Below the pieces are notes generated by a model. It was not told the DNA's origin and ran no database searches. It was given only the letters and a program-made list of their open reading frames with translations. From contig DATJXL010000089.1 of the NCBI GenBank assembly GCA_035500135.1, forward strand, positions 7,645 to 71,644: 64,000 nucleotides of DNA, written 5' to 3'. The position numbers were made by a program, and so were the translations under genes. Source of the stretch: Kofleriaceae bacterium. GTDB taxonomy: Bacteria; Myxococcota_A; Polyangia; Haliangiales; Haliangiaceae. Below are positions 11,758-44,387 of the stretch, piece after piece. Position 1 is the first letter of the stretch; every line of letters starts with the position of its first letter.

Positions 11758-11835
11758 CGCGATCCAGCGTAACACTACCCAGTTGCGACGCGGGCATAGC
11801 CCGAGCCTTACTCCCGCGGTAGATTGGCCGCGGCC

Positions 11836-11910
11836 GATCCCATAGCTCAGGTGGATCAGAGCGGCGGTTTCCTAAACCGCAGGCCGCAGGTTCGAGCCCT
11901 GCTGGGATCA
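11836..11910 (+). tRNA. tRNA-Arg (anticodon CCT)
   Basis: Hand-folded. Acceptor GATCCCA/TGGGATC; D arm GCTC...GAGC; anticodon stem GCGGT/ACCGC with loop TTCCTAA; T arm GCAGG-TTCGAGC-CCTGC; discriminator A. Confidence 0.9.
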
Positions 11911-11913
11911 CCG

Positions 11914-31486: not shown

Positions 31487-32419
31487 ATGCAGTGGCGACT
31501 CGTCTCCGGTCTGCTCGTCGCGACCACGTCGGTCGCGTCGGCCGACGACCCGTCGCCCGATGCCACGCCGACGACACCGACGACACCGGTGCGGCGCGAG
31601 GACGCCACGTTCGGTCAGATCTTCGGCGGGCCGTTCCAGTCGTCGCGGCTGTTCGCGATGCCGACCGCCGACACGGTCGGCCCGTACATGCTCGCGCTAT
31701 CGGGCGAGGGCAGCCTGCTCGAGCAGCCGGGCTTGCTCACGTCGGCCGGCGTGGTCGCGATCGGGTTCGGCGATCTCGCGCAGCTCGAGTACCGCCACAC
31801 CGAAGCGATCAGCGTGACCGGCGTCAACGCGCCGGTGCCCGCGGTCGGCGCGCAGTTCCGGCTGCCGATCCCCGAGCAGCCGAACGTGCCGGCGATCGGG
31901 ATCGCATATCGCCAGGGTTTGCCGCGTGACGAGCAGGTCGGCATGGCGACGGTCGAGGAGTCGGTCACCGACATCTACATGGTCGCGCGCGAGCGGCTGT
32001 CGGTCGCGCCGTGGCTGACGCTCCACGCCGGCCTGCGCTACTCGCCGTCGCACGTGACGGTGACCGGCCTGCCGGCCAAGAGCGCCGACCTCTGGCTGCC
32101 GGCCGCCGGTTTCGAGCTCGCGGTCAACCGCGAGGCGCGCGTCGTCGGCGAGACCGAGCTCGTCCCGCAGTTTCATTTCGACCCGGGCGACACCGCGCCG
32201 CGCATCACGACGGGCGCCGAAGCCCGGCTCGGCCTGCGCTGGGCGCTGTTTCACGCGGTGACGCTCGACGCCAGCTTTGGTTACCAGCTCGACGAAGCGA
32301 TGGGCTCCATCGGGGGCCCGCGCGACGTCGTGCAGGAGTGGGACATCCGGCTCGGTGCCGAGGTGTTCGTGCCCTGGGGTGCGCTGGCCTGCCGCGCCGC
32401 CGGGGTGTTCTGCGACTAA
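31487..32419 (+). CDS. Secreted protein, paralogue 1 of an unrecognised family
   Basis: Signal peptide MQWRLVSGLLVATTSVASA. Shares blocks with the next two genes (MPTADTVGP.., IGFGDLAQLEY, AQFRLP..PAIGIAYRQG, IYMVARERL...LHAG). Confidence 0.7.
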   Translation: MQWRLVSGLLVATTSVASADDPSPDATPTTPTTPVRREDATFGQIFGGPFQSSRLFAMPTADTVGPYMLALSGEGSLLEQPGLLTSAGVVAIGFGDLAQLEYRHTEAISVTGVNAPVPAVGAQFRLPIPEQPNVPAIGIAYRQGLPRDEQVGMATVEESVTDIYMVARERLSVAPWLTLHAGLRYSPSHVTVTGLPAKSADLWLPAAGFELAVNREARVVGETELVPQFHFDPGDTAPRITTGAEARLGLRWALFHAVTLDASFGYQLDEAMGSIGGPRDVVQEWDIRLGAEVFVPWGALACRAAGVFCD

Positions 32420-32444
32420 CGCGGCCCGAGGAGAGGAGTCAGTG

Positions 32445-33695
32445 ATGAAGAAGCTATGGATCGTCGCTCTCGTCGCCGGCATCGCCGCGACCGCGGACGC
32501 ACAGCCGAGCGACCCGTACAACCACGATGCGGGTGGCAACGGCAGCGCGCAAGCGCCGCCGCAGGAACCGCAACCACCGCCGCCACCGCAGCCAGGGCCG
32601 GAGCAACCACCGCCGCAGCAGCACACCGTGCGCGTGCTCGGACGCACGCGCATGTACGAGCTGCCGAACGAGGCGAGCGCGGTGATGACCTACGTCGAGC
32701 CGAACGAGCAGCTCGTGCCGGTGCGCACCGAAGGCGAGTGGACGTACGTCGAGAACTGGCGCGGCCAGGCCGGCTGGATCAAGACGTCGCGGGTCGCGGC
32801 GGCACAGGCGCCGGCCTCGCCCGACGACGCCGCGGCCGAGGAGGCGAAGCAGGAGCCACCGAAGAAGCCGGAAAAGCCGCGGCCACCCGATCCGCCGGTC
32901 GATCTGCCGATGCTGATCGCGGCGCCGACCGGCTGGCTGTTGCCGGCGGCGGTCCTGTACTCGCGCACCGGCCTCGACACCGGCGGCGGGTTCACGTCGG
33001 ATAACCGCGTCGGCCTCGGCGACGTCGCCGAGTTCGGCGTGAAGACGCTCGATCAAGTTCGTTCGTGCTCGGGCCCGACGACGCTCTCGGACTGCGCGAA
33101 CTCGGCCAGCGCGATCCAGCCGTATTTCACCGCGATCTTCCGCATGGGTGTCGGCGAGGACCGCTTGTTCGACGGCCAGCCCGGCCTCGTGCTCGGCTTC
33201 GAGAAGTCGTTCGAGCGCGACGACGGCGACAACGCGACGCGCATCGCCGAGCTCACGCTGGTCGCGAGCAAGAAGCTCGGCGATCGTGCGTCGATTCACG
33301 TCGGCGCCGCGTTCTGGGATGCCGAGTTCACCAACTCGACGTCGGACACCACGGTCGCGCTGCACAACCTCGACGGCGGCTTCGCGAACCAGATCCGTCC
33401 GTTTGCCGGCCTCGCCGCCAGCCCGATCGCGAAGTCCGAGCTCCTCGTCGACCTCAGCTGGGCGCCGCAGTTCTGCTACGCCTGCAACACGTCGGGGCCG
33501 ACCGACAACCAGCAGATCCGGTTGCGGCCCGAGCTCGCGTGGGGCGTGCGCTACAAGGTCGCCGACTGGATGCTGCTCGAATCCGGCGTGCGCGTGCCCG
33601 ACATCGGAAACGCGAACCTGCTCGACGCGCAGATCTACGGCGCGGTGACATTCGTGACGTGGGGCCTCCGCCACGCGGTGGACAGCGTGAAGTGA
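32445..33695 (+). CDS. Secreted protein, paralogue 2: Pro-rich linker + SH3b-like domain + family domain
   Basis: GAGGAG SD. MKKLWIVALVAGIAATADA. PPQEPQPPPPPQPGPEQPPPQQ. SH3b-like RVLGRTRMYELPNEASAVMTYVEPNEQLVPVRTEGEWTYVENWRGQAGWI. Family blocks APTGWLLPAA, VGLGDVAEFGV, FRMGVGEDRLFDGQPGLVLGFEKS. Confidence 0.75.
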   Translation: MKKLWIVALVAGIAATADAQPSDPYNHDAGGNGSAQAPPQEPQPPPPPQPGPEQPPPQQHTVRVLGRTRMYELPNEASAVMTYVEPNEQLVPVRTEGEWTYVENWRGQAGWIKTSRVAAAQAPASPDDAAAEEAKQEPPKKPEKPRPPDPPVDLPMLIAAPTGWLLPAAVLYSRTGLDTGGGFTSDNRVGLGDVAEFGVKTLDQVRSCSGPTTLSDCANSASAIQPYFTAIFRMGVGEDRLFDGQPGLVLGFEKSFERDDGDNATRIAELTLVASKKLGDRASIHVGAAFWDAEFTNSTSDTTVALHNLDGGFANQIRPFAGLAASPIAKSELLVDLSWAPQFCYACNTSGPTDNQQIRLRPELAWGVRYKVADWMLLESGVRVPDIGNANLLDAQIYGAVTFVTWGLRHAVDSVK

Positions 33696-33696
33696 C

Positions 33697-34437
33697 GTGC
33701 GTCGATTCGCGATCATATGGATCGCGTTGGCCGCGCGGGCGGCTGCCGCCGACCCTCCAACCGTCGACCACGTGGTCACGGCGCCGACCGCGTGGCTGCC
33801 GGCCGCCGGCACGGCGATCGGCAGCGCGTCGCTCGACCAGCACGGCACATCGTCGATCGTCGTCGGCTATGGCCTCGGCGGGATCGCCGAGGTCGAGCTC
33901 GGCGGCGACGGCGACGTCGACCAGTGCGACAGCGTGGCGTGCAAGTCGCGGCTCTACCAGGCGCGCGCCACGTTCCGCGTCGGCGCGCGCCAGGACGAGT
34001 GGTTCGACGGCCAGCCGGCGCTCGTGTTCGGCGTGCAGGAGTCGTTGCCCGGCACGCGTCGCGTCGGCGAGGCGTACGTGGTGGCGAGCCGCACGCTCGG
34101 CACCGGATTCGGCTCGTGGCGCCTGCACGCCGGCGCGATCGCGCTCGACGCGACCGCGGACGATGGCTCGCGGCTCGGCTTCACCGTGCGGCCGATCGGC
34201 GCGATCGAGCTCGTGCCCGCGCAGTATCCGAAGACCACGATGATGCTCGACGTGACGTGGTTGCCCGAGCTGCACGCGCCCGGCTCGATGACCGCGCCGG
34301 TGCAGGCGGCGTGGCTCGGTGGCTTCGGCGTGCGCTATCAGGCCTTGTCGTGGGGATCGATCGAGCTCGCGATCCGCGCGAGCTCGGTCGAGGACCGCGG
34401 AGTGATGGTGCGCATCAACGGCGTGCTCGGGCAGTAG
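33697..34437 (+). CDS. Secreted protein, paralogue 3
   Basis: GTG start 1 nt after the previous stop. MRRFAIIWIALAARAAAA. Blocks APTAWLPAAG, YGLGGIAEVEL, FRVGARQDEWFDGQPALVFGVQES, YVVASRTLG. Confidence 0.7.
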   Translation: MRRFAIIWIALAARAAAADPPTVDHVVTAPTAWLPAAGTAIGSASLDQHGTSSIVVGYGLGGIAEVELGGDGDVDQCDSVACKSRLYQARATFRVGARQDEWFDGQPALVFGVQESLPGTRRVGEAYVVASRTLGTGFGSWRLHAGAIALDATADDGSRLGFTVRPIGAIELVPAQYPKTTMMLDVTWLPELHAPGSMTAPVQAAWLGGFGVRYQALSWGSIELAIRASSVEDRGVMVRINGVLGQ

Positions 34438-34457: not shown

Positions 34458-34805
34458 ATGCATGGGGGCATCGAGTGGTTGATCGACGCGCATGGCTGCG
34501 CGCCGGCCCGGCTGCGCGATCGCGACGCCGTGGTCGCGCTGCTCGAGCGCATCGTCGCCGACATGCAGCTGCACGTCGTGTCGCGCGCGGTGCACGTGTT
34601 CGGCGGCGAGGGCGGCGTGACCGCGCTGTACTTGCTCGCCGAGTCGCACCTGTCGATCCACACGTTTCCGGAAGCCGGCACCGCGACGCTCGACGCCTAC
34701 TGCTGCGCGCCGCGCGAGCCCGCCGCGTGGCGCGCGCTGTGCGGCGACGCGCTCGGGGCGCGCGACGTGATCGTGCGCGAGCTCGCGCGCGGAGTGATCG
34801 CGTGA
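34458..34805 (+). CDS. speH: S-adenosylmethionine decarboxylase proenzyme (small pyruvoyl SpeH/SpeD type)
   Basis: 115 aa. Self-processing motif LLAESHLSIHTFPE. Real 3' end of shadow ORF 33717..34805. Confidence 0.85.
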   Translation: MHGGIEWLIDAHGCAPARLRDRDAVVALLERIVADMQLHVVSRAVHVFGGEGGVTALYLLAESHLSIHTFPEAGTATLDAYCCAPREPAAWRALCGDALGARDVIVRELARGVIA

Positions 34806-37096
34806 AGACGAGCTGCCCGAACTGCGGCGCCGAGGTCGAGTTTCGCTACGACGACTCGTTCGTGCGCGTGTGCGACCACTGCCGGTGCGCCGTGCTGCGC
34901 ACCGATCGCGGCGTCGACTCGCTCGGCCAGGTCGCGGATCTGGTCCCGATGGACTCGCCGCTCGCGCTCTTCGCGGACGGCCATCTCGGTAGCGCCGGCT
35001 TCCTGCTCGTCGGCATGGCGCAGATCCGCCACGGCTCGGGCGGGCTGTGGCAGGAGTGGTACGCGAAGCTGGACGGCGGCAAGTGGGGCTGGCTCGCCGA
35101 GGCGCAGGGCCGCTACTACCTGACGTTCGAGGAGCCGGCCGCGGCGCTGCCGCCGTTCGAGTCGCTCGCCCCGGGCCAGGCGATCGAGCTGCCGGTGCAC
35201 GGCGTGTCGCGTCGGTTCACGGTCTCCGAGCACGCGGGGGCGGCGTACGTCGCGGCGACCGGCGAGCTGCCGTACAAGCTCGTGCCCGACGGCAGCTTCC
35301 GGTTCGTCGATCTCGACGACGGCGCCGGCACGTTCGCGACGATCGACTACGGCGACACCGGCGACGCACCGGCGCTGTACGTCGGCCAGCAGGTCACGCT
35401 CGACGAGCTCGGCATCCGCGGCGGCGAGCACGGCCCGTCGCGCGACGCGAAGATCGCGAGCCAGCGCCTCGCGTGCCCGAACTGCAACGCGCCGATCGAG
35501 CTACACGCACCGGGCGACGCGCAACGCTACGCGTGCACGTCGTGCAATCACCTGATCGCGCTCGACGGCAACCTGCGCGTGCTCGGCGGGCTCCCGCACA
35601 AGGCGTCGCCGTCGATCCCGCTCGGCAGCGTCGGCAAGCTGCCCGAAGGCGAGCTGACCGTGATCGGCTTCGTGCAGCGCAGCGCGCACGTCGACGGCGC
35701 GTGGTACCCGTTCGAGGAGTATCTCTTGTACGCGCCCGCCGTCGGCTTTCGCTGGCTCGTGTGCTCGGACGGCCACTGGAGCTACGTCCAGCCGGTCGCG
35801 GTCGGTGCGGTCGAGGCCGGCGTCACGGGCTGCCGCTACGACGGCGTGAAGTTCACGCGCTTCACGGGTGCGCCGCTGCGCGTCGATCAGGTCCTCGGCG
35901 AGTTCTACTGGCAGGTCGAGGTCGGCGAGACGGTCGACAGCGAGGATTTCATCGCGCCGCCCGCGATGCTGTCGTCGGAGACGACGCGGAGCGAGACGAC
36001 GTGGTCGCTCGGCACGTACATGACGATCCACGACGTCCAGCACGCGTTCGGCGACAAGAACCTGCCGATCGGACCGACGATCGGCGTCGCGCCGAACCAG
36101 GTCGATCGCAGCGAGCGCGCGGCGCGGTGGATGGCCGGCGGCGTGGGCGTGATGCTCGCGATCGGGATCGTCGCCGCGACGGTCGCGCCCGATCACCTGG
36201 TCTACGAGCACGCGATGGAAGTGCACGCTGGCTCGGCCGCGCCGGTCGCGCAGACCCAGCCGATCGCGGATGTCGGCACGCCTGGAAGTGGCGACGCGTG
36301 CGCGCAGTATCGCGTCGCCGTGCACAGCCTGCTGAGCTGCGAGGAGATCCCGAAGGAGTCGCGTGACTCGCTGGTGTCGGCGTTTCCGCTCGATTCGAGC
36401 GACGCTGTGGTCTGCCAGGCAGGCGTGGATTCGGTGAAGCAGATCCTCGCGCGCACCAAGTGCGAGCTCGGCAGCGCCAGTGGCAGCGGCAGCAGCACCG
36501 TCGCCGGCAGCGGAAGCGGCAGCAGTAGCGGCAGCGGCAGCGGCGAGCTGGAGGCTCCCAACGTGTTCTTCTCCGATCCGTTCCAGCTCGACTCCGGCCA
36601 CAACGTCGAGGTCGAGCTGAGCTCGCCGGTCGACAACGACTGGGTCTACGCCGCGGCCGATCTCGTCAACCAGGACACGGGCGATGTCGTCGAGGTCGAG
36701 AGCGACCTCGAGTACTACCACGGCATCGACGACGGCGAGGCGTGGAGCGAGGGCTCGCACCGGTCCACCACCGTGGTCGGCCCGCCGACCGGCGGCACGT
36801 ACATCCTGCGCGTCGAGGCGCAGCACGGCGGACACGGCGAGACCAGCCTCGCGATGGCGATCCATCAGGGCGTGTTTCGCGGGACCTACCTGATCCTGTT
36901 CCTCGGCGTGCTCGGCATCCCATGGCTGTTGCTCGGGCTGCACGCGTGGTCGATCGAGAAGCGGCGCTGGGAGAACAGCACCCGCGGCAAGCCGCCGGTC
37001 ACGTCGTTCACGATCGTGGTCGCGATCGCCGGTGGTATCGCGTTCGTGATCTGGGGCCTGTTCAAGCTGGTCGCGCGGAGCAGCAGCAATGACTGA
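34802..37096 (+). CDS. 764-aa membrane protein: 2 x (Zn-ribbon + DUF4178-like domain), TM, Cys-containing and beta-rich extracytoplasmic region, two C-terminal TM helices
   Basis: GTG at 34802 overlaps the speH stop (GTGA). CPNCGAEVEF..CDHCRC and CPNCNAPIEL..CTSCNHLI. LWQEWYAKLDGGKWGWLAEAQG and AWYPFEEYLLYAPAVGFRWLV resemble DUF4178. TM at AARWMAGGVGVMLAIGIVAATVA. GS-rich linker. Confidence 0.8.
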   Translation: MKTSCPNCGAEVEFRYDDSFVRVCDHCRCAVLRTDRGVDSLGQVADLVPMDSPLALFADGHLGSAGFLLVGMAQIRHGSGGLWQEWYAKLDGGKWGWLAEAQGRYYLTFEEPAAALPPFESLAPGQAIELPVHGVSRRFTVSEHAGAAYVAATGELPYKLVPDGSFRFVDLDDGAGTFATIDYGDTGDAPALYVGQQVTLDELGIRGGEHGPSRDAKIASQRLACPNCNAPIELHAPGDAQRYACTSCNHLIALDGNLRVLGGLPHKASPSIPLGSVGKLPEGELTVIGFVQRSAHVDGAWYPFEEYLLYAPAVGFRWLVCSDGHWSYVQPVAVGAVEAGVTGCRYDGVKFTRFTGAPLRVDQVLGEFYWQVEVGETVDSEDFIAPPAMLSSETTRSETTWSLGTYMTIHDVQHAFGDKNLPIGPTIGVAPNQVDRSERAARWMAGGVGVMLAIGIVAATVAPDHLVYEHAMEVHAGSAAPVAQTQPIADVGTPGSGDACAQYRVAVHSLLSCEEIPKESRDSLVSAFPLDSSDAVVCQAGVDSVKQILARTKCELGSASGSGSSTVAGSGSGSSSGSGSGELEAPNVFFSDPFQLDSGHNVEVELSSPVDNDWVYAAADLVNQDTGDVVEVESDLEYYHGIDDGEAWSEGSHRSTTVVGPPTGGTYILRVEAQHGGHGETSLAMAIHQGVFRGTYLILFLGVLGIPWLLLGLHAWSIEKRRWENSTRGKPPVTSFTIVVAIAGGIAFVIWGLFKLVARSSSND

Positions 37097-37331
37097 GCCC
37101 GCCGCGCGTCCACCCGATCATCCGCCGGTGCCGCGTCCCGGCCGCTCGGCGCGCGTGATCGCGGCGATCGTGTTCACCGCGATCGCGTGCGGCGGCTACG
37201 GCGCGATGGCGTACACGCAGCGCGAGCTGTGGGAGCCGCAGCACGACGAGGTCCCCGCCAGCGTGCGGACCTCGCCCGGCGGCTACCGCTCGTATCACTT
37301 CTGGCACACCGGCTATCACGGAGGCAAATAG
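37089..37331 (+). CDS. 80-aa single-TM protein
   Basis: The ATG overlaps the upstream stop (ATGACTGA). RVIAAIVFTAIACGGYGAMAY helix. GC3-rich. The terminal GGAGG serves as SD for the next gene. Confidence 0.55.
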   Translation: MTEPAARPPDHPPVPRPGRSARVIAAIVFTAIACGGYGAMAYTQRELWEPQHDEVPASVRTSPGGYRSYHFWHTGYHGGK

Positions 37332-37553
37332 ATGAAGCTCGACAACATGGGAGACGCGGCCGTCTCGTCGGCGGTGTTCGCCGGCATCGGTCTCGCGGTG
37401 TTCGGAATCGCGTTCTGGCTCATGACAAAGCTCGCGCCATTCTCGGTCAAGAAAGAGATCGAGGAAGATCAGAACACGGCGCTCGCGATCATCATGGCCG
37501 GGGTGATCATCGGTGTCAGCCTCATCATCTCCGCAGCCATCTCCGGGCAGTAG
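37332..37553 (+). CDS. DUF350 (YjfL-like) small membrane protein
   Basis: 73 aa, two helices. KKEIEEDQNTALAIIMAGVIIGVSLII matches the DUF350 pattern. The ATG abuts the previous TAG. Confidence 0.8.
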   Translation: MKLDNMGDAAVSSAVFAGIGLAVFGIAFWLMTKLAPFSVKKEIEEDQNTALAIIMAGVIIGVSLIISAAISGQ

Positions 37554-37581
37554 CTCGGGGCCGCCGATCGCGGCGGGCGCG

Positions 37582-39072
37582 TTGTACGCCAACGTGTTCG
37601 TCGTCGCGATCTGCGGCCTCGTCTACGAGCTGCTCGCCGGCACGCTGGGCAGCTACTTGCTCGGCGATTCGGTCACGCAGTTCTCGCTCGTGATCGGGCT
37701 CTACCTGTCGGCGATGGGCGCCGGTGCGTGGCTGTCGCGCAAGCTCGACGGCGATCTCGCGCGCCGGTTCGTCGAGATCGAGCTCGCGGTCGCGATCGTC
37801 GGCGGGCTGTCCGCGCCGGTGTTGTTCCTGTCGTTCGGCACGGTCGTGCACTTCCAGATCGTGCTGCTCGGGTTCGTCGCCGCGATCGGCGTGCTCGTCG
37901 GGCTCGAGCTGCCGATCCTGATGCGCCTGCTCGAAGGTCAGATGGAGCTCAAGGACCTGGTGTCGCGCGTGCTCACGTTCGATTACATCGGCGCGCTCGC
38001 GGCGGCGCTGATGTTCCCGCTCGTGCTCGTGCCGAAGCTCGGCCTCGTCCGCAGCTCGCTCGTCGCCGGCGTCGCGAACGCGGCGGTCGCGCTGTGGGGC
38101 ACGTGGCTGCTCGGCTCGCGGCTCGGCCCGCGCGCGTTCGGCGTGCGCGTGCGCGCGATCGTCGTGCTGGTCGCGATGCTCGTCGCGCTCGCGTTCGCGG
38201 ATCGGTTCACGACCTGGGCCGAGGACGAGATGTACGCCGATCCGATCGTGTTCACCGAGACCACGCCGTATCAGCGCATCGTCGTCACGCGCGGCCGCGC
38301 CGGCTTCCAGCTGTTCCTGAATGGAAATCTCCAGTTCTCGTCGGCCGACGAGTACCGCTATCACGAGGCGCTCGTGCACCCGGCGATCAGCGCGGCCGGC
38401 GGCGCGCCGAAGCGCGTCTTGATCCTCGGCGGCGGCGACGGGCTCGCGCTGCGCGAGGTGCTCGCGCACGCGTCGGTCGAGCAGGTGACGCTCGTCGATC
38501 TCGATCCGGCGATGACGTCGCTGTCGAAGAAGTTCCCGGCGCTCGCCGAGCTCAACCATCACTCGTTCGACGACCCGCGCGTCACCGTGATCAACGACGA
38601 CGCGATGGTCTGGCTCGACGACCATCCCGGGCAATGGGATGTCGCGATCGTCGACTTCCCCGATCCGAACACGTTCCAGCTCGGCAAGCTGTACACGCGC
38701 CTGTTCTATCGCCGCCTGCTCGCGCGCATCGCACCGGGTGGCGCGGTCAGCGTGCAGGCGACGTCGCCGCTGTTCGCCCGGCGCTCGTACTGGTGCATCG
38801 TCGAGACGATGCGCGCCGCCGGGTTCGCGGTGCGGCCGTATCAGGTCACCGTGCCGTCGTTCGGCGTGTGGGGCTACGCGCTCGCGCGCCGCGAGCCGTT
38901 CGATCCGCCGCGCGCGGTGCCGGCGCTGCCGCTGCGCTACCTGAACGAGGCCGCGCTCGCCGCGATGTTCGAGATGCCCGCCGACACGACCGAGGTGCCG
39001 GTCGAGATCAACCAGCTCGATAACCAAGCGCTGGTGCGGTACTACGAGCGCGAGTGGCGGCGATGGGAATAA
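37582..39072 (+). CDS. speE: Polyamine aminopropyltransferase (spermidine-synthase-like) fused behind a ~7-helix membrane domain
   Basis: Catalytic part has VLILGGGDGLALREV, VTLVDLDP and VAIVDFPDP. Track start 37513 (GTG) lies inside DUF350, where this frame has poor GC3. I prefer the TTG at 37582; the start is uncertain. Confidence 0.85.
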   Translation: MYANVFVVAICGLVYELLAGTLGSYLLGDSVTQFSLVIGLYLSAMGAGAWLSRKLDGDLARRFVEIELAVAIVGGLSAPVLFLSFGTVVHFQIVLLGFVAAIGVLVGLELPILMRLLEGQMELKDLVSRVLTFDYIGALAAALMFPLVLVPKLGLVRSSLVAGVANAAVALWGTWLLGSRLGPRAFGVRVRAIVVLVAMLVALAFADRFTTWAEDEMYADPIVFTETTPYQRIVVTRGRAGFQLFLNGNLQFSSADEYRYHEALVHPAISAAGGAPKRVLILGGGDGLALREVLAHASVEQVTLVDLDPAMTSLSKKFPALAELNHHSFDDPRVTVINDDAMVWLDDHPGQWDVAIVDFPDPNTFQLGKLYTRLFYRRLLARIAPGGAVSVQATSPLFARRSYWCIVETMRAAGFAVRPYQVTVPSFGVWGYALARREPFDPPRAVPALPLRYLNEAALAAMFEMPADTTEVPVEINQLDNQALVRYYEREWRRWE

Positions 39073-40631
39073 GCCGCCGCGAGTTCACGGCGATGCTGCT
39101 CGGCGCGCCGCTCGCGTACGCGTGCGCGCGGCGCGGACCGGCGCGCATCCCGCCCGGCGCGCTCGTCGAGACCGGCATGCGGCGCGGTCACGCGGCGGTG
39201 CGCGACGCGCGCGCCGTACCGGCCGTGCCGAGGTGGCGGCGCGTGAAGGTCGCGATCGTGGGCGGCGGTGTCGCCGGGCTGTCGGCGGCGTGGGAGCTGC
39301 GCCGGCGCGGCGTGACCGACGTCGTGATCGTGGAGCTCGACGACGTCTTCGGCGGCACCGCGCGCGGCGGCGAGTCGAGCGTGACGCCGTATCCGTGGGG
39401 CGCGCACTACATCGTCGCGCCGCAGCGCGACGACGATCTCGCGGCGCTGCTCGCGGAGATGGGCGCGATCGAAGGTCACGCCGCCGATGGCTCGCCGATC
39501 GTCGACGAGGCGCTGCGCTGCCGCGAGCCCGAGGAGCGCGTGTGGTGGCAGGGGCGCTGGTGGGAGGGCCTGTACCTCGACGCCGGTGCGAGCCCGGATG
39601 ATCGCCGGCAGCTCGCGGCGTTTCGCGCCGAGATCGATCGCTGGGCGGGCTGGCGCGACGAGCAAGGCCGGCGTGCGTTCGCGATCCCGCGCAGTACGGC
39701 GAGCCCTGCGCCCGAGCTGGCCGTGCTCGATACGTATTCGTTCGCGCACTGGCTCGACGCGCACGGCCTGGTGTCGCCGCGCCTGCGCTGGCTCGCCGAC
39801 TACGCGTGCCGCGACGACTACGCGCTGACCGCGGCGCAGACCAGCGCGTGGGCCGGCATCTTCTACTTCGCGGCGCGCCAGCGCGCGCCCGGCGCGGCCG
39901 CGCAGACCGTCGTGACCTGGCCCGACGGCAACGCGTCGCTCGTGCGCGAGCTCGCGCGCGGCGCGACGATCGAGCGCGGGCTCGCGGTGGTCGACATCGA
40001 CGAGGTCACCGGTCGAATGATCGCGGTCGGCGACGCCGGATGGATCGGCTTGGAATGCGACGCGATCATCTCGTGCGTGCCGCGGTTCGTGGCGAATCGC
40101 GTGATCCGCGGCCGGCGAGGGCAGAGCCACGGCGATTACGGCGCGTGGACGGTCGCGAACGTGCACCTGCGCGCGCGCCCGATCGAGCGCGGCCGCGGGG
40201 CGCCGCCGGCCTGGGACAACGTATTTCGCGACAGCCCGAGCCTCGGCTACGTGTGCGCGACCCACCAGCGCGGGCGCGATCGCGGCCCGACCGTGTGGAC
40301 GTGGTACTACGCGTTCGCCGACGACGATGCCGCCGCCGTGCGCCGCAAGCTCGCCGGCGCCGGCTACGACGAATGGGCCGAGGTCGTGCTCGCCGATCTC
40401 GAGCGCGCGCACCCCGACGTGCGCGAGCACGTCGAGCGCATCGAGGTCGCGTTCTGGGGTCACGGCATGATCCGACCGCGCGTCGGCGCGATGTTCGGCG
40501 CCGATCCGACCGTGCCGATCGGCCGCGTCCACTTCGCGCACACCGATCTGAGCGGGCTCGCGCTGTTCGAGGAGGCGTTCGATCACGGCCTGCGCGCGGC
40601 GCGCGAGGTCGCGGAGGCGCTGACGGCATGA
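39063..40631 (+). CDS. Tat-exported FAD-dependent amine-oxidase-like oxidoreductase
   Basis: MGISRREFTAMLLGAPLAYACA (twin-Arg signal). VKVAIVGGGVAGLSAAWEL dinucleotide fold. The ATG at 39063 overlaps the speE TAA (39070-39072). Confidence 0.8.
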   Translation: MGISRREFTAMLLGAPLAYACARRGPARIPPGALVETGMRRGHAAVRDARAVPAVPRWRRVKVAIVGGGVAGLSAAWELRRRGVTDVVIVELDDVFGGTARGGESSVTPYPWGAHYIVAPQRDDDLAALLAEMGAIEGHAADGSPIVDEALRCREPEERVWWQGRWWEGLYLDAGASPDDRRQLAAFRAEIDRWAGWRDEQGRRAFAIPRSTASPAPELAVLDTYSFAHWLDAHGLVSPRLRWLADYACRDDYALTAAQTSAWAGIFYFAARQRAPGAAAQTVVTWPDGNASLVRELARGATIERGLAVVDIDEVTGRMIAVGDAGWIGLECDAIISCVPRFVANRVIRGRRGQSHGDYGAWTVANVHLRARPIERGRGAPPAWDNVFRDSPSLGYVCATHQRGRDRGPTVWTWYYAFADDDAAAVRRKLAGAGYDEWAEVVLADLERAHPDVREHVERIEVAFWGHGMIRPRVGAMFGADPTVPIGRVHFAHTDLSGLALFEEAFDHGLRAAREVAEALTA

Positions 40632-41668
40632 AGCGCTGGCTGTTCTCGGCGCCGATCGATCTCGCCGTGTTCGGCGGCACCGCGATCGTGGCGCTCGCGC
40701 TGGTCGCGCTCGGCCCCGCGCTCGGCGTGCACGGCCGCGGCGACGCGCCGGAGTGGTCGTGGATCACGGGCGTCTTGCTCGTCGACGTCGCGCACGTGTG
40801 GTCGACCGCGTTCGTCGTCTACCTCGATCCGGCCGAGCTGCGCCGCCGGCCCGCGCTCTACGTCGGCGCGCCGATCGTCGCGTTCGCGAGCGGGATCGCG
40901 CTGTACGCGCTCGGCGAGGCCGCGTTCTGGCGCGCGATCGCCTACGTCGCGGTGTTTCACTTCATCCGCCAGCAATACGGCTGGGTGATGATGTATCGCG
41001 CGCGCACCGGCCAGCGCGACGTGCTCGGGCGCTGGCTCGACGGCGCGACGATCTACGCGGCGACGCTGTACCCGCTGATCTGGTGGCACGCGTCGCTGCC
41101 GCGCGCGTTCTCGTGGATGCGCGACGGCGACTTCGTCCCCGGCCTGCCGGCGTGCGTGATCGCGCCGGCGCGGACGATCTATGTCGCGCTGGTCGGGTCG
41201 TATGTCGTGCGCGCGTGCTTCGAGCGCCCGGTCGCGTGGGGCAAGCACGTCGTGGTCGCCGCGACCGTCGCGTGCTGGTACGTCGGCATCGTCGCGACCA
41301 ACTCCGACTACGCGTTCACGGTGTCGAACGTGTTCGTGCACGGCATCCCGTACATGGTGCTCGTCTACCTGTACGCACGCGCCGCGGCGCGCGAGCGCGA
41401 ATCGGCGCACGGCCTCGCGGCCCGGCTCGTGCGGCGCGGCGTGCTCGTGTTCCTCGCGACCCTCTGGCTCGTCGCGTACCTCGAAGAGCTCGTGTGGGAT
41501 CACGCGGCCTGGCACGAGCGCGCGTGGCTGTTCGGCGGCAGCTTCGACCTCGACCGCGGCGCCGTGTTGCTGGCACCGCTGCTCGCGGTGCCGCAGCTCA
41601 CGCACTACATCCTCGACGGCTTCCTGTGGCGTCGGAGGTCGAATCCGCGGCTGGGGCGCTTGCTCTAG
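40628..41668 (+). CDS. 346-aa polytopic membrane protein with His-containing TM motifs, unknown family
   Basis: The ATG overlaps the previous stop (ATGA). 8-9 hydrophobic helices. Motifs VDVAHVWST, VFHFIRQQYGW, NVFVHGIPYM, QLTHYILDGFLWRRR. Real part of shadow ORF 39806..41668. Confidence 0.7.
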   Translation: MKRWLFSAPIDLAVFGGTAIVALALVALGPALGVHGRGDAPEWSWITGVLLVDVAHVWSTAFVVYLDPAELRRRPALYVGAPIVAFASGIALYALGEAAFWRAIAYVAVFHFIRQQYGWVMMYRARTGQRDVLGRWLDGATIYAATLYPLIWWHASLPRAFSWMRDGDFVPGLPACVIAPARTIYVALVGSYVVRACFERPVAWGKHVVVAATVACWYVGIVATNSDYAFTVSNVFVHGIPYMVLVYLYARAAARERESAHGLAARLVRRGVLVFLATLWLVAYLEELVWDHAAWHERAWLFGGSFDLDRGAVLLAPLLAVPQLTHYILDGFLWRRRSNPRLGRLL

Positions 41669-41669
41669 G

Positions 41670-43061
41670 CTAGTTCGCCTCGAAGATCTCCCAGTACTGC
41701 GTCGGATCATCGGCGGTCGGATCGGATTCGATCGCGAGCGTGTGCGTGTTCACGGCGAGCGACGTGCCCTGGCCGAGGTACTCGTTCGTCAGCCGGTAGA
41801 CGCCGTCCGTGATCGGTTCGAGCAGCCAGTACTGGCCGCTGTAGTTCCCGGTCTGCGCCATCGTCCACGTGTCGAACGCCATGCCTTCGCCCTGGTAGCT
41901 GTTCGTCAGCCGGTAGTATCCGCCGCCGAGCGGGCTCAGCTCCCACCATTGGCCGCTGTAGTTGCCGGTCGCGGCGATCACGCCGGTGTCGAGCGAGTAG
42001 CTTCCGCCGAGCGCGACGTTCTGGATGTGAAACCACTCCGCCGGCGACGCGAACGTCGGGCTCGGGTTCGCACATGACAGGCTGCAGCTCGACAGCATGT
42101 AGCTCGGGTTGGCCTGGCACTGCGCCTCGAACGCCCACAGCGGGCACGAGGCGTTCGCGTCGGAGGCGTCGAACGCGATGCCGGTGATCGACGCGACGTC
42201 GCCGACGTTCGCCTGGCCGCCGAAATTCCCGTTGACGAACTCCCAGCTCAGCTCGGCCCAGCCGCCGTTGCCCCAGCCGGTGCCCCACGAGTTCAAGATC
42301 CACACGCCGTTCTCGTCGTACGCGAACGCCGCGATCGCGTGGCCGCCGCGCGACGACTCGCCGTCGCTGGGCGGGCCGACGAGGTAGCTCGACGACGTCG
42401 CGCCGTCGAACTCGGGATAGACCTGGATCGACAGGATCGCGGGCCGGCCCGCCGCGAGCGTGGCCTCGATCGCTTTCTGGACGCCGCCCGACAGGTTGCT
42501 CTGCTTGTAGCCGGTGATCTTGAACCGCCCGGCATTCGACTTCTGCGCGCTCGTCGGCTGCGTCGCGCAATCGAGATCGAACTGCATCGGCTCGTAATCG
42601 GTCTGCGTGTCGACGCCGTGGCTCTTCATCATGCCGAGCACGTGCTCGACGTACGATCCGTTGTCGCAGTTACCTGCCACGATCTGCGAGTACAGGAACA
42701 TCGGCGCGAACGTCGCGCCGGTATAGCCGTCGTGGTTCGCCCACCAGCCGAGCGCGCTGTGCGCGCTCGACCACGTCGTGCACGAGCCGGTGTCGCCTTG
42801 ATCTCCCGGTGGCGGCGCTTCACTCGACAGATCGACGCTCGACGGCACCGACAGCACCGGCTCGGTGTCCGATCCGGTGGTCGGTGGAAGCATCGCGCCC
42901 GTGCCGTGATGCACGGGTGATCCGGTCGCGGCGGCGTGCACGGTCATGGCCTGGCCGCCGCCGAGTGCGGCGGGCAGCCGGACGGCGATCGGCTCGTCCT
43001 GCGCGGTGGCGCAGGCGGCCAGGACGCTCGCGCCGATGGCGAGCGCGAATTCGATGCGCAT
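41670..43061 (-). CDS. Lipoprotein: papain-like (C1) cysteine peptidase + 4-Cys ShK-like module + ricin-type beta-trefoil lectin
   Basis: SVLAAC lipobox. Catalytic QGDTGSCTTWS, GGHAIAAFAY and LNSWGTGWGNGGW. CPLWAFEAQCQANPSYMLSSCSLSC. Three QxW repeats (GQWWEL, GQYWLL, TQYWEI). Confidence 0.85.
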   Translation of the reverse strand: MRIEFALAIGASVLAACATAQDEPIAVRLPAALGGGQAMTVHAAATGSPVHHGTGAMLPPTTGSDTEPVLSVPSSVDLSSEAPPPGDQGDTGSCTTWSSAHSALGWWANHDGYTGATFAPMFLYSQIVAGNCDNGSYVEHVLGMMKSHGVDTQTDYEPMQFDLDCATQPTSAQKSNAGRFKITGYKQSNLSGGVQKAIEATLAAGRPAILSIQVYPEFDGATSSSYLVGPPSDGESSRGGHAIAAFAYDENGVWILNSWGTGWGNGGWAELSWEFVNGNFGGQANVGDVASITGIAFDASDANASCPLWAFEAQCQANPSYMLSSCSLSCANPSPTFASPAEWFHIQNVALGGSYSLDTGVIAATGNYSGQWWELSPLGGGYYRLTNSYQGEGMAFDTWTMAQTGNYSGQYWLLEPITDGVYRLTNEYLGQGTSLAVNTHTLAIESDPTADDPTQYWEIFEAN

Positions 43062-43148: not shown

Positions 43149-44387
43149 TCACGGTTCGAGCGTCCACGCCAGGCACGCGATCAGATCGTCGGCTTCTTCG
43201 AGGCCGATGCCGAGCCGGATCAGGCGATCGATCCCGAGGCGCGCGACGGTCTCGGCCGGCGTGAAGTACTCGCTGACCGTGCGGTGGTGGTTGACCTTGG
43301 TGACCAGGCCGTCGAACGACAGCGCGTAGCGCACGATGCCGCACGACGCGAGGCGATCGGCGAGCACGCGGTGCGCGGCCTCGTCGGCGTCGCGCACGCG
43401 GAACGCCAGCAACGAGCCCGTGCGCACGTAGTCGCGCGCGATCACCGCGGCATCGGGATGATCCGGCCGGCTCGGGTGAAACACGCGCTCGACGCGCGGA
43501 TGCTCGCCGAGCCACCCGGCGACGCGCGCGGCGGTCGCGCAGCGCCGAGCGTGGGCCTCGCGCGCGCGCGGCAGGTTCGCGGCGACGCGGCGCGCGCGAT
43601 CGTCGTCGAGGATCCCGCCGCGCATCGCGACGAGATCCATGATCTGGTTCGCGAACGCGGCGTCGTTGGTCGCGATGTAGCCGCCGAGCGCGGCGTCCTG
43701 ACCGCCGAGCGCCTTGGTGAGCGAGCCGACGACGACGTCGGCGCCGGTCGCGAGCAGCGGCGCGCGCACGCCCCACGGCGTCGCGATCGTCGAGTCGATC
43801 ACGAGCCGCGCGCCCGGCGCGCGATGCACGAGCGCGGCGAGCGCGGGCACGTCCTGCGCGCGCCCGAGCGGGTTCGTGAACGTCTCGGCGAACACCAGGC
43901 GCGTGTCGGCGCGCAGCGCGGCGGCGAGCGCCGCGTGATCGCCATCGTCGACGAGCGCGAGCGTGGCGCCGACTCGCTTGCACGTCGCTTCGAAGAACGC
44001 GCGCGTCTTGTTGTAGACCTGGCGCATCGCGACGACGTGCGCGCCGGCCGCAATCGCGCAGTCGGCGACGAGCGCGACCGCTTGCATGCCGCAATCGGCG
44101 ACGATCGCGCACCTGGCCTGCTCGAGCCCGCGCAGCGCCGCGATCAGCTCGGCCGTGCCGGGCGTGCCGTAGCGCGCGTACAGGTGCGGCAGCTCGGACC
44201 ACGCTCCGTCGCCGCGCAGCGTGAACGCGGCCTTCGCTTCCTGCCACGCGATGCCCTCGGCCGACGAGCCGAGGTCGCGCTGGATCGAGCGCCGCTCGGG
44301 GTGCAGATACGGCGCGTTGGCATCGATCGGCTCGTGGAGCGCGCGCGTCGCGGCGCTCGCGGTCGCCAGGCTCGGCTTGCCCGTCAT
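43149..44387 (-). CDS. PLP-dependent Cys/Met-metabolism enzyme (O-acetylhomoserine sulfhydrylase / cystathionine gamma-synthase family)
   Basis: PLP-lysine context VVGSLTKALGG. ATG at 44387 (MTGKPSL) overlaps the metX::hom stop (ATGA). Confidence 0.85.
   Translation of the reverse strand: MTGKPSLATASAATRALHEPIDANAPYLHPERRSIQRDLGSSAEGIAWQEAKAAFTLRGDGAWSELPHLYARYGTPGTAELIAALRGLEQARCAIVADCGMQAVALVADCAIAAGAHVVAMRQVYNKTRAFFEATCKRVGATLALVDDGDHAALAAALRADTRLVFAETFTNPLGRAQDVPALAALVHRAPGARLVIDSTIATPWGVRAPLLATGADVVVGSLTKALGGQDAALGGYIATNDAAFANQIMDLVAMRGGILDDDRARRVAANLPRAREAHARRCATAARVAGWLGEHPRVERVFHPSRPDHPDAAVIARDYVRTGSLLAFRVRDADEAAHRVLADRLASCGIVRYALSFDGLVTKVNHHRTVSEYFTPAETVARLGIDRLIRLGIGLEEADDLIACLAWTLEP

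Follow-up and report, generated by a model that had tools for sequence, protein, structure and literature searches.

Among the closest described systems is that of Ravi, Anantharaman et al. 2024 (mSystems, PMC11237479), who described a neighbourhood of 7TM-SpdSyn, DUF350 and DUF4178 genes and mentioned variants with AdoMetDC, a polyamine oxidase or a potassium channel. As cited in that paper, Li, Kurihara, Kim, Liang & Michael 2019 (Biochem J 476:2579) linked AdoMetDC to a membrane-fused SpdSyn-like protein and DUF350, and are reported to have concluded that the fusion takes no part in making spermidine or spermine. Work summarised in PMC12803844 is stated there to place bacterial homologues of membrane-aminopropyltransferase (membrane-APT) fusions experimentally outside spermidine/spermine synthesis. 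In the E. coli clusters yjfIJKLMC and tolC-ygiBC, the products YjfC and YgiC carry the annotation of peptide-spermidine ligases.

Here, we analysed a window of 64,000 nt, i.e., the whole stretch taken from a Kofleriaceae (Myxococcota) MAG. It holds seven co-directional, overlapping ORFs on the forward strand (g1-g7, 34458-41668). With modest confidence, we lean towards reading their sequences as one operon encoding a membrane-organised aminopropyl-transfer system, i.e., a PspA-less variant of the AdoMetDC / 7TM-aminopropyltransferase / DUF350 / DUF4178 neighbourhood. The first-pass annotation of the window had presented a DUF4178/DUF350/TM-SpeE neighbourhood as novel. This was overstated given Ravi et al. 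2024 and, as cited there, Li et al. 2019, while its remark that no function has been demonstrated to date stands. The neighbourhood itself being already described, what we add are leads, namely the Tat-lipoprotein export of g6, the outside-facing prediction for g5 and the Gly-Gly-Lys tail of g3.

Comparison with described systems

With the operon of Ravi et al. (e.g., Shewanella oneidensis SO_3762-3767), the locus shares the fusion of 7TM and Spermine_synth, YjfL/DUF350 and DUF4178. Also common is the order tail protein, DUF350, TM-SpdSyn, where the tail protein, encoded immediately upstream of DUF350, is membrane-anchored or exported and has a low-complexity tail. In contrast, the module studied here comes without the CesT/Tir-PspA dyad, the Band-7/SHOCT protein and the RHH regulator. 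In its g2 protein, DUF4178 occurs in duplicate with Zn ribbons and is joined to TM helices and to a domain in the periplasm, its tail protein (g3) is an 80-aa single-pass protein compared to the lipoprotein Ctha_1186 there, and the g7 family is an addition. The clusters of Li et al. 2019, as far as they are cited, have AdoMetDC, the membrane-fused aminopropyltransferase-like protein and DUF350 in common with our locus.

In the E. coli clusters, too, a DUF350 inner-membrane protein is found beside polyamine-conjugating chemistry, and an exported protein (YjfM ...HWGG, YgiB ...SMGG) has a C-terminal tail rich in Gly and aromatic residues. However, an ATP-grasp ligase is found there and an aminopropyltransferase here, YjfL spans the membrane with four TM helices and g4 with two, and no counterpart of PspA-family YjfJ, DUF2170, DUF2491 or DUF1190 was found in our module. 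In hhalign comparisons, g2 showed no homology to YjfK and g3 none to YjfM. The earlier description of yjfIJKLMC, with the DUF350 gene yjfL beside a PspA-family gene and a glutathionylspermidine-synthetase homologue, was correct. To our knowledge, a Tat lipoprotein oxidase, the g7 family and a GGK-tail protein are not part of the description given by Li and colleagues.

Layout and conservation of the locus

All ORFs are present where the first-pass annotation had placed them, and its reading of start/stop-overlapped genes was borne out by the sequence. That is, g1/g2 overlap in GTGA (34802-34805), g2/g3 in ATGACTGA (37089-37096), g5/g6 in ATGGGAATAA (39063-39072) and g6/g7 in ATGA (40628-40631), while the TAG of g3 is directly followed by the ATG of g4 (37331/37332). 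The g4/g5 junction, which had not been described, is an overlap of 41 nt if GTG 37513 is the start of g5; no other start codon is available before TM1. GC3 values range from 0.85 to 0.96 per gene, as expected for coding sequence in a genome of ~70% GC. No promoter, terminator or riboswitch signals were found inside the operon. Co-translation in fixed proportions, which the first-pass annotation had suggested from the layout, may apply.

In a census anchored on g7, which says nothing on how frequent the variant is among all TM-aminopropyltransferase clusters, the order g1-g7 is kept upstream of g7 in 36/54 informative loci (those with enough flank) from at least three phyla (Myxococcota, Acidobacteriota, Planctomycetota). 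The same gene order in so many loci from three phyla is more than chance and agrees with the conservation among relatives that had been presumed. Median intergenic gaps across conserved loci are -4 to 31 nt, with -4 nt for g1/g2 (n=30 loci). The Ralstonia and Alteromonas variants come without g7, the former also without g3.

Directly upstream of g1, three secreted proteins of 310, 416 and 246 aa are encoded on the same strand (u1-u3, 31487-34437), with gaps of 25, 1 and 20 nt (the latter up to g1) and GC3 values of 0.91-0.93. They show no Pfam family match aside from a weak SH3 match; u2 is a paralogue of u3 (E 5e-17), and u1 shows a weak relationship to them. u1-u3 probably share a transcript with g1-g7. 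They are lineage-specific and lie outside the conserved core, since the census found them in loci L001, L004 and L008 only, i.e., in close Kofleriaceae relatives.

Gene products

The family assignments made earlier (AdoMet_dc, DUF4178, DUF350, aminopropyltransferase, Amino_oxidase) all hold in profile searches. For g1 (34458-34805, +, 115 aa), we obtained PF02675 (AdoMet_dc) with E 2.6e-25 and 75.6 bits for TIGR03330 (cutoff 75.65). The protein aligns with the enzymes of Aquifex (2iii) and Thermotoga (1tlu) over stretches that include LLAES|HLSIHTFPE and the downstream Cys, and hydropathy and charge analysis revealed neither a signal peptide nor a TM helix. Judged by its sequence, g1 is an intact, cytoplasmic class 1b pyruvoyl S-adenosylmethionine decarboxylase proenzyme without export signal.

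The 519-aa product of g5 (37513-39072, +) reads as a seven-TM domain with a C-terminal aminopropyltransferase domain (PF01564, E 3e-35), which retains intact motifs for dcAdoMet binding and for the catalytic Asp (YQ, DEYxYHE, GGGDG, DFPDP). It reaches 659 bits for NF002956 (polyamine aminopropyltransferase, cutoff 472), and among solved structures it comes closest to Thermus SpeE 1uir/3anx (134 bits) and to thermospermine synthase. Only 22.5 bits are found for NF037959 ('fused MFS/spermidine synthase'), so its membership in the subfamily tested by Li et al. 2019 is uncertain. The seven TM helices are strongly conserved and so are acidic residues within the membrane. Over 43 orthologues, the mean K+R count per loop is 1.5/0/2.9/~0/3.6/0.7/2.8; this alternation together with the number of helices implies an N-in topology with the catalytic domain outside the cytoplasm. 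The catalytic domain is thus predicted, given only the positive-inside rule and the seven-helix count, to face the periplasm. What counts against this is that periplasmic catalysis would depend on dcAdoMet being available outside the cytoplasm, with MTA released there as well, for which no precedent is known.

g6 (39063-40631, +) encodes a 522-aa enzyme of the flavin amine oxidase fold (PF01593, Amino_oxidase, E 3.6e-12; PF13450 also matched). In 46/48 orthologues, a [ST]RR[DE]x[LV] motif and a hydrophobic stretch are followed by a Cys. With this twin-arginine signal and lipobox Cys, g6 is by sequence a Tat-exported, lipid-anchored and therefore periplasmic flavoprotein. Its PDB sequence matches are limited to the FAD-binding motif. 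In a structure search, the AF2 model (pLDDT 70) matched best to a putrescine-binding bacterial MAO (8p84/9h5p, E 7e-21) and also resembles putrescine oxidase 2yg3, the spermidine dehydrogenase SpdH 7d9f and MAO-A/B. The best structural matches, i.e., the Rhodococcus putrescine oxidase, the Thermoanaerobacterales MAO and P. aeruginosa SpdH, share the two-domain fold with g6 but only 16-22% sequence identity, and g6 differs in being a Tat lipoprotein and in having a polytopic partner.

This partner, g7 (40628-41668, +, 346 aa), belongs to a family without characterisation that comprises 3347 homologues (1030 clusters at 50% identity). About 10 helices with N-in/C-in topology are predicted. No Pfam/NCBIfam matches were found across 40 members even at E<=10, PDB sequence matches are absent, and Foldseek returned no match for the AF2 model (pLDDT 73, best E 0.26). 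Invariant are D11, D53, H56, Y106, H111, Q115, H238, P241, Y242, H326, D330 and W334; helix positions put the four His close to the middle of the membrane, with invariant Asp and Gln beside them.

Within the 764 aa of g2 (34802-37096, +), PF13785 (DUF4178) matches two stretches (E 1.9e-22) and Zn-ribbon families match weakly. Hydropathy and charge place residues 1-440 (Zn ribbon-DUF4178-Zn ribbon-DUF4178) in the cytoplasm, followed by TM 444-462, a periplasmic region 467-696, TM 697-715, a conserved RRWE loop and TM 736-754. In the conservation profile of 37 orthologues, residues 481-580 (nt 36242-36541) form a lineage-specific Cys/Gly-Ser insert, while a beta-rich domain at about 590-690 is conserved. 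A solved relative of g2 was not found, its PDB matches being confined to the Gly-Ser linker. g4 (37332-37553, +, 73 aa) matches positions 5-67 of the 133-position PF03994 (DUF350) profile (E 3e-14) and aligns with E. coli YjfL (hhalign E 4e-4), i.e., its two TM helices correspond to half of the 4-TM protein. Its conserved loop PFSxxKEIEEDQN is predicted to be cytoplasmic.

Sequence features make g2, g3, g4 and g7 inner-membrane proteins. The earlier picture of a membrane-organised envelope polyamine machine is sustained in that g2-g5 and g7, five products out of seven, are membrane proteins and that g6 is a Tat lipoprotein; that the envelope is also where a polyamine is made, attached or oxidised we can only infer.

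Proposed mechanism and alternative readings

In the mechanism we propose, g1 would make dcAdoMet in the cytoplasm and g5 would pass on the aminopropyl group, at the inner membrane or across it, to something other than the bulk putrescine of the cytoplasm. The cationic donor or acceptor would be conducted by the conserved acidic 7-TM domain of g5. The product so aminopropylated would face the periplasm and be oxidised there by g6 working with g7, be it for turnover or length control or for conversion to an aldehyde. g2, with its cytoplasmic ZnR-DUF4178 pair and periplasmic domain and as the gene coupled most tightly to g1, would serve together with g4 as scaffold or regulator.

As acceptor, the invariant periplasmic tail of g3 (37089-37331, +) would be the best candidate, and a new one. 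This 80-aa single-pass protein, for which Pfam and NCBIfam returned no matches, has a tail ...VRTSPGGYRSYHFWHTGYHGGK that ends exactly in Gly-Gly-Lys and is conserved in 19 orthologues. Its topology is predicted as N-in with the tail outside, the N-terminal flank being more positive in 18/19 orthologues. A lipoprotein nature of g3 was ruled out, as Cys34 is not conserved.

A specific form of this idea is that g5 aminopropylates the epsilon-amine of the C-terminal Lys of g3, once or repeatedly, yielding a membrane-anchored protein with a spermidine-like periplasmic tail that g6/g7 trim or oxidise. We regard it as tentative and, on balance, unlikely. For the acceptor role of the tail in general as well as for this form of it, the following observations speak. 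In 36/39 loci, the DUF350 gene is immediately preceded by an ORF ending in G(x)GK and the stop codon, compared to 0.24% of all ORFs with this ending, g3 is restricted to loci carrying g4 and g5, and the tail is predicted on the same side as the g5 catalytic domain and g6. A lipoprotein ending in ...SSGK is found at the same position in the distant Alteromonas plasmid variant. The ligases YjfC/YgiC of the E. coli relatives are encoded beside DUF1190 proteins ending in ...GG, both pairs being present in L001, and eukaryotes have protein-GG-spermidine conjugates. However, this basis is purely comparative with predicted orientations, and the Ralstonia variant carries g5 and g6 with no GGK-type ORF within 17 kb. 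The tail could equally serve as a docking or assembly motif. We also know of no aminopropyltransferase acting on protein lysine, which counts against this reading.

Ordinary polyamine biosynthesis seems improbable. Here, g1 and g5 would be a membrane-anchored SpeD/SpeE pair making spermidine, thermospermine or another free polyamine, g6 a catabolic or homeostatic oxidase and the rest unrelated membrane neighbours. As in canonical speD-speE, g1 is a canonical AdoMetDC and g5 keeps all standard catalytic motifs, passes the curated threshold of the NCBIfam polyamine aminopropyltransferase equivalog, has true polyamine synthases as nearest structures and appears to retain all residues known for putrescine-type substrate binding. 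But the transferase lies behind seven TM helices, the pair is set among five membrane or periplasmic proteins, the seven genes with their overlapping junctions keep one order across three phyla, and a Tat-exported lipoprotein oxidase would be needless for a free cytoplasmic product. Furthermore, the statement in PMC12803844 that membrane-APT fusions of bacteria have no part in spermidine/spermine synthesis, as far as it is given there, fits the first-pass verdict of 'not housekeeping speDE'.

A module for envelope stress or ion homeostasis along the lines of Ravi et al. is likewise doubtful. On this view, the enzymes would set or signal a local state of polyamines or of aminopropylation, which would in turn control membrane proteins (DUF350, DUF4178 and, in some lineages, a potassium channel), and no structural product would be built. 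Related operons contain PspA/CesT, Band-7/SHOCT or TelA-like genes, and g2 crosses the membrane with domains on both sides. In three Pyrinomonadaceae loci, moreover, a voltage-gated-type ion channel gene is inserted between g5 and g6, which fits the aminopropyl-transfer reading as well. However, no PspA, Band-7 or regulator gene was found inside the module or in the sampled flanks, and this reading leaves the chemistry unstated, i.e., it overlaps our preferred aminopropyl-transfer system instead of excluding it.

Quite improbable is periplasmic amine respiration or catabolism, with g6 as amine dehydrogenase, g7 as membrane electron acceptor binding haem or metal by its His and the other genes supplying or exporting substrate: the SpdH-like structure of g6, the four intramembrane His of g7, the ATGA overlap and the occurrence of the g6+g7 pair without the remaining genes speak for it, but similarity of g7 to known redox subunits was found neither in fold nor in sequence, its His lie at mid-membrane by invariant Asp/Gln and not on two levels as in di-haem cytochromes b, and g7 is also found alone in varied contexts.

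Layout and conservation of the operon

All seven plus-strand ORFs claimed by the first-pass annotation were found in the window, i.e., g1 (34458-34805), g2 (34802-37096), g3 (37089-37331), g4 (37332-37553), g5 (37513-39072), g6 (39063-40631) and g7 (40628-41668), and each of the junctions it quoted is exact on reading the sequence. The g4/g5 junction, not quoted there, is a 41-nt overlap if g5 starts at GTG 37513, the sole start codon before its first TM helix. Third-position GC ranges from 0.85 to 0.96 per gene, with a window GC of about 70%.

Upstream of g1, at a distance of 20 nt, are three co-directional genes for secreted proteins (u1-u3, 31487-34437, plus strand), themselves separated by 25 and 1 nt. 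Of these, u2 is a paralogue of u3 (E 5e-17) and shows a weak SH3 match as well as a Pro-rich linker. A protein kinase gene (29783-31375, minus strand) is divergent upstream of this series and a C1 peptidase/ricin-lectin gene (41670-43061, minus strand) is convergent downstream, which sets the limits of the transcription unit to about 31.4 and 41.67 kb. Inside it, we found no Rfam families and no promoter or terminator patterns beyond chance level.

The first-pass annotation had also called for a gene-neighbourhood census. Here, a 40-member g7 alignment was scanned against one genome per GTDB species, which yielded 80 loci that were then searched with all ten window proteins (u1-u3, g1-g7). The order was judged in the 54 loci whose flank upstream of g7 is 6.5 kb or longer. 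In 36 of these, from three phyla, g2, g5 and g6 lie upstream of g7, co-oriented and in the window order, and g1, g3 and g4 are also found in most. The order-keeping loci belong to Myxococcota, Acidobacteriota (Blastocatellia, Pyrinomonadaceae) and Planctomycetota (Gemmataceae, Pirellulaceae, Kuenenia), and median gaps between consecutive genes from g1 to g7 are -4, 9, -1, 5, 7 and 31 nt. g7 occurs alone in twelve loci and with g6 only in a few.

The flanking genes vary by phylum (ClpB, M16 peptidases, LPG_synthase_TM, DUF1501 and others), and u1-u3 are confined to close (Kofleriaceae) relatives. Together with the order found in the census, this marks g1-g7 as the conserved unit, and its gene order is not chance. 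u1-u3 may act with the module as partners in the outer membrane or the periplasm. As a separate observation, the module of Ca. Kuenenia, an anammox planctomycete, is immediately preceded by a gene with a lysyl-phosphatidylglycerol-synthase TM (flippase-like) domain (locus L083, 2638-3684).

Families and predicted location of the proteins

Profile searches bore out all five family assignments that had been made from the sequence alone (AdoMet_dc, DUF4178, DUF350, aminopropyltransferase, Amino_oxidase). The decarboxylase g1 scores 89.3 bits against PF02675 (cutoff 25, E 2.6e-25) and lies right at the threshold of the stricter equivalog TIGR03330 (75.6 bits, cutoff 75.65). It was aligned to the class 1b AdoMetDC structures of Aquifex and Thermotoga across the ES/H processing site, the His five residues on and the Cys, i.e., LLAES/HLSIHTFPE and ...DAYCC occupy the same alignment positions in 2iii and 1tlu. 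Neofunctionalised SpeD homologues exist that decarboxylate arginine or ornithine (PMC10407285); the linkage to an aminopropyltransferase favours AdoMet as the probable substrate of g1.

The aminopropyltransferase g5 reaches 659 bits against NCBIfam NF002956 (PRK03612; cutoff 472, residues 20-518), while its 22.5 bits against the 'fused MFS/spermidine synthase' family NF037959 are below the cutoff of 40. Its catalytic domain is nearest to Thermus SpeE and thermospermine synthase. The motifs YQ, DEYxYHE, GGGDG and DFPDP are retained, with the dcAdoMet-binding GGGDG and the catalytic D-x-x-D-P motif DFPDP aligning to GGGEG and DLTDP of Thermus SpeE. Across 43 orthologues, the TM domain shows strong conservation and holds intramembrane acidic residues (YELLAG, LGDS, GLELP, TFDY). 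Mean Lys+Arg counts of the successive loops in these orthologues are 1.5, 0, 2.9, ~0, 3.6, 0.7 and 2.8. With seven helices, these loop charges (N-in) place the catalytic domain outside the cytoplasm, which is a prediction only. dcAdoMet would then have to reach the periplasm, for which we know of no precedent. A fungal homologue is reported to be linked to an ER-lumen function, which is at least consistent in topology.

The oxidase g6 covers the whole Amino_oxidase profile (PF01593, 46.7 bits, cutoff 19.8). Its AF2 model (pLDDT 70, i.e., moderate confidence) matches 8p84 and 2yg3 in Foldseek with E 7e-21, and the nearest structures are a putrescine-binding bacterial MAO, putrescine oxidase, the spermidine dehydrogenase SpdH and MAO-A/B (E 1e-21 to 1e-16). 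The N-terminus in the window (SRREF...LAYAC) combines a twin-arginine motif, a hydrophobic stretch and a lipobox Cys. The same holds for 46 of 48 orthologues, which show [ST]RR[DE]x[LV] and a hydrophobic stretch that closes with a conserved Cys (LAAC, LSAC, SGC and similar); C21 is nearly invariant. Twin-arginine motif and lipobox Cys form a Tat lipoprotein signal, which makes g6 a periplasmic, Tat-exported lipoprotein.

g3 had been listed as a mere mini-TM protein, a description that misses its conserved tail. No Pfam or NCBIfam family matches it, and a homologue search with g3 returns close Kofleriaceae relatives only. Its N-terminal half is variable, but the protein closes with a conserved tail, VPxSVRxSPGGYRS[FY]HFWH[ST]GYxGGK, of which Gly-Gly-Lys are the very last residues. 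Planctomycetota loci are tblastn-negative for g3, yet hold a small single-pass ORF in the same slot that ends in ...YTGFRGGK, ...SWGGGK or ...GFGGK. Overall, an ORF ending in G(x)GK lies directly upstream of the DUF350 gene in 36/39 loci, compared to a background of 45/18415 ORFs of the same loci, and in two of the three remaining loci one lies a little further upstream. No G(x)GK-ending ORF was found in loci with only g7 or only g6 and g7. The tail is predicted to be periplasmic, given that the N-terminal flank is the more positive one in 18/19 orthologues. A lipoprotein nature of g3 was ruled out, as Cys34 is not conserved.

The membrane protein g2 matches DUF4178 (PF13785) in two stretches with 80.3 bits (cutoff 25), each preceded by a CxxC...CxxC ribbon, and all of these elements are kept in 37 orthologues. 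According to the predicted topology, the DUF4178 part is followed by a TM helix, a 230-residue acidic periplasmic region and two further TM helices. In this lineage, the periplasmic region comprises a Cys-rich/Gly-Ser insert and then a conserved beta-rich domain. Residues 481-580 (36242-36541), i.e., a four-Cys helical segment and a long Gly-Ser linker, are missing in most orthologues. g4 scores 53.6 bits against DUF350/YjfL (PF03994, cutoff 26) and covers half of the profile, that is, one 2-TM repeat.

For g7, a roughly 10-helix protein in its AF2 model, we collected 3347 homologues, and the large family comprises 1030 clusters at 50% identity. The g7 of the window is 100% identical to a protein of a Kofleriaceae MAG (Myxococcota). 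Among members about 35% identical, D11, D53, H56, Y106, H111, Q115, H238, P241, Y242, H326, D330 and W334 are invariant. g7 has no match in Pfam or NCBIfam, and 40 diverse members gave none in Pfam with the threshold relaxed to E<=10. Neither a profile search of PDB sequences nor AF2 plus Foldseek against the PDB gave a relative of known function.

Relation to described systems

The observation of the first-pass annotation is confirmed, as are its family calls, and its interpretation is borne out in part. Its belief in an undescribed neighbourhood is wrong, since Ravi et al. 2024 (PMC11237479) describe it; that a function is undemonstrated still holds. In their description of the neighbourhood, the order is LipoSIG+Ctha_1186+low-complexity, YjfL, TM+Spermine_synth, CesT, PspA, DUF4178 and RHH. 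In variants, other proteins stand in for the PspA dyad, and there is additionally an AdoMet decarboxylase, together with a polyamine oxidase and a potassium channel. They also cite Li et al. 2019. Like their second group, the window operon joins 7TM-Spermine_synth, DUF350, DUF4178 and an exported tail protein in one operon. Unlike that group, it is without the CesT/Tir-PspA dyad, i.e., neither the ten operon proteins nor the sampled flanks of the other loci gave a PspA or CesT match, and PspA is absent among the best 25 of 49 families of 30 other window genes. The locus is a variant of a described kind of system, with a compact architecture that is conserved across phyla.

In three Pyrinomonadaceae loci, a gene for an Ion_trans (voltage-gated-type) channel lies between g5 and g6 (L065 7155-8093, L033 4739-5566, L071 1984-2796), which echoes the potassium channel of the variants of Ravi et al.; in L026, a DUF4177 protein takes this slot. 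Further arrangements are found on plasmids. On Ralstonia solanacearum megaplasmids, a TM-SpdSyn (52% identical) is followed by a g6 homologue, with DUF350, a SHOCT-ending protein and DUF4178 being divergent. An Alteromonas mediterranea plasmid (L086) carries TM-SpdSyn, speD, a TelA-like protein, DUF4178, a lipoprotein and an 8-TM DUF350. Here, the TelA-like 'toxic anion resistance' protein is in the slot that PspA has in Shewanella, and the lipoprotein (11183-12715, 510 aa), directly upstream of the DUF350 gene, has a low-complexity Ser/Arg/Gly-rich tail ending in ...GPSSGK.

The E. coli cluster yjfIJKLMC is as had been stated, i.e., yjfL sits beside a PspA-family gene and a glutathionylspermidine-synthetase homologue, and YjfC and YgiC are annotated as peptide-spermidine ligases. 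Its parts (GSP-synthetase-family ATP-grasp ligase, DUF1190, DUF2491, DUF2170, PspA-family) are missing in the operon of the window. In hhalign, g2 gave no homology with YjfK (DUF2491), nor did g3 with YjfM (DUF1190), and the likeness of the tails is compositional only. A GSP_synth gene with a DUF1190-like tail protein follows g7 in one locus only (L001), not in the window or other loci. There, 11090-14083 encodes a 92-aa secreted protein ending in ...RGGFGGYFWTGGG, a GSP-synthetase-family ligase and a 282-aa protein, the first two forming a YjfM/YjfC-like pair.

Some neighbours of the window operon can be compared to L001 as well. The slot of its ligase pair is held in the window by the papain-family peptidase with ricin-type lectin domain. 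The upstream Ser/Thr kinase of the window, which has a polytopic N-terminal membrane domain, has a kinase counterpart in the same slot of L001. Further downstream (43149-46696, minus strand), the window encodes a Cys/Met-metabolism PLP enzyme and a fused homoserine O-acetyltransferase-like/homoserine dehydrogenase, which occupy the same slot in L001, L002 and L003. It may not be by chance that methionine supply lies beside an operon that consumes SAM.

Putative aminopropyl transfer and its alternatives

By sequence, the unit comprises a cytoplasmic AdoMetDC, a motif-intact 7-TM aminopropyltransferase, a periplasmic lipid-anchored flavin amine oxidase and four other inner-membrane proteins, all inherited together. 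With a slight lean in its favour, we read this as membrane-organised aminopropyl transfer with a periplasm-facing product on which g6 and g7 act. dcAdoMet from g1 would be handed to g5 which, at the inner membrane or across it, would use an acceptor other than bulk cytoplasmic putrescine. The aminopropylated product would face the periplasm, where g6 would act on it together with g7. g2, which appears to be the gene most tightly coupled to g1 and to have domains on both sides of the membrane, may serve with g4 as scaffold or regulators. The best candidate acceptor would be the GGK tail of g3.

AdoMetDC and a membrane-fused aminopropyltransferase are found together in thousands of bacterial genomes, reportedly without spermidine being made, and their target has been a standing question since 2019. 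The leads from this locus are the periplasmic Tat-lipoprotein amine oxidase, the predicted extracytoplasmic catalytic domain and the co-inherited small protein with its invariant Gly-Gly-Lys end. It is doubtful, though conceivable, that the acceptor of membrane-fused aminopropyltransferases ('polyamine-independent' AdoMetDC use) is a ribosomally made protein. In this reading, the C-terminal Lys of g3, which is invariant, would be aminopropylated by g5 at its epsilon-amine on the periplasmic side, yielding a protein-tethered spermidine-like tail.

The peptide-lysine version is attractive because its Gly-Gly-[N6-(3-aminopropyl)Lys] skeleton is that of a protein Gly-Gly amide-linked to spermidine N8 (plus a carboxylate). 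In E. coli-type clusters, the peptide-spermidine ligases could arrive at an equivalent product by ATP-grasp chemistry, joining spermidine to the DUF1190 proteins that end in ...GG and are encoded next to them; L001 has both gene pairs, and protein-GG-spermidine conjugates are documented in eukaryotes. Should g3 be the acceptor, or else a lipid on the inner membrane's outer face, a new envelope modification would result, along with first functions for DUF350, DUF4178 and a 1000-cluster polytopic His/Asp family without Pfam model. Aminopropylation of the g3 Lys would also be a new protein modification, in which a donor derived from SAM acts outside the cytoplasm.

Plain spermidine synthesis by a membrane-anchored SpeE appears improbable to us: the catalytic domain of g5 is SpeE-like, while the statement on bacterial membrane fusions in PMC12803844 reports them as not making spermidine or spermine, with the membership of g5 in the tested subfamily being uncertain. 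We also consider a stress or ion-homeostasis regulatory module to be unlikely; channel genes accompany some of the loci, and the operon proteins gave no PspA match. Least probable is a periplasmic amine dehydrogenase with g7 as its redox partner; g7 as a di-haem cytochrome b is not supported by helix position, which puts all four His near mid-membrane.

The long g7 'fusions' (M1 peptidase, LptD) and the neighbours of solitary g7 are heterogeneous, with no consistent partner. Nearby or apparently fused to solitary g7 (loci L030, L051, L063 and L054, proteins P0128 and P0167) we find LpxD, a neutral ceramidase, a BamB-like propeller, LptD and an M1 peptidase, i.e., surroundings that lean loosely towards envelope and lipid functions.
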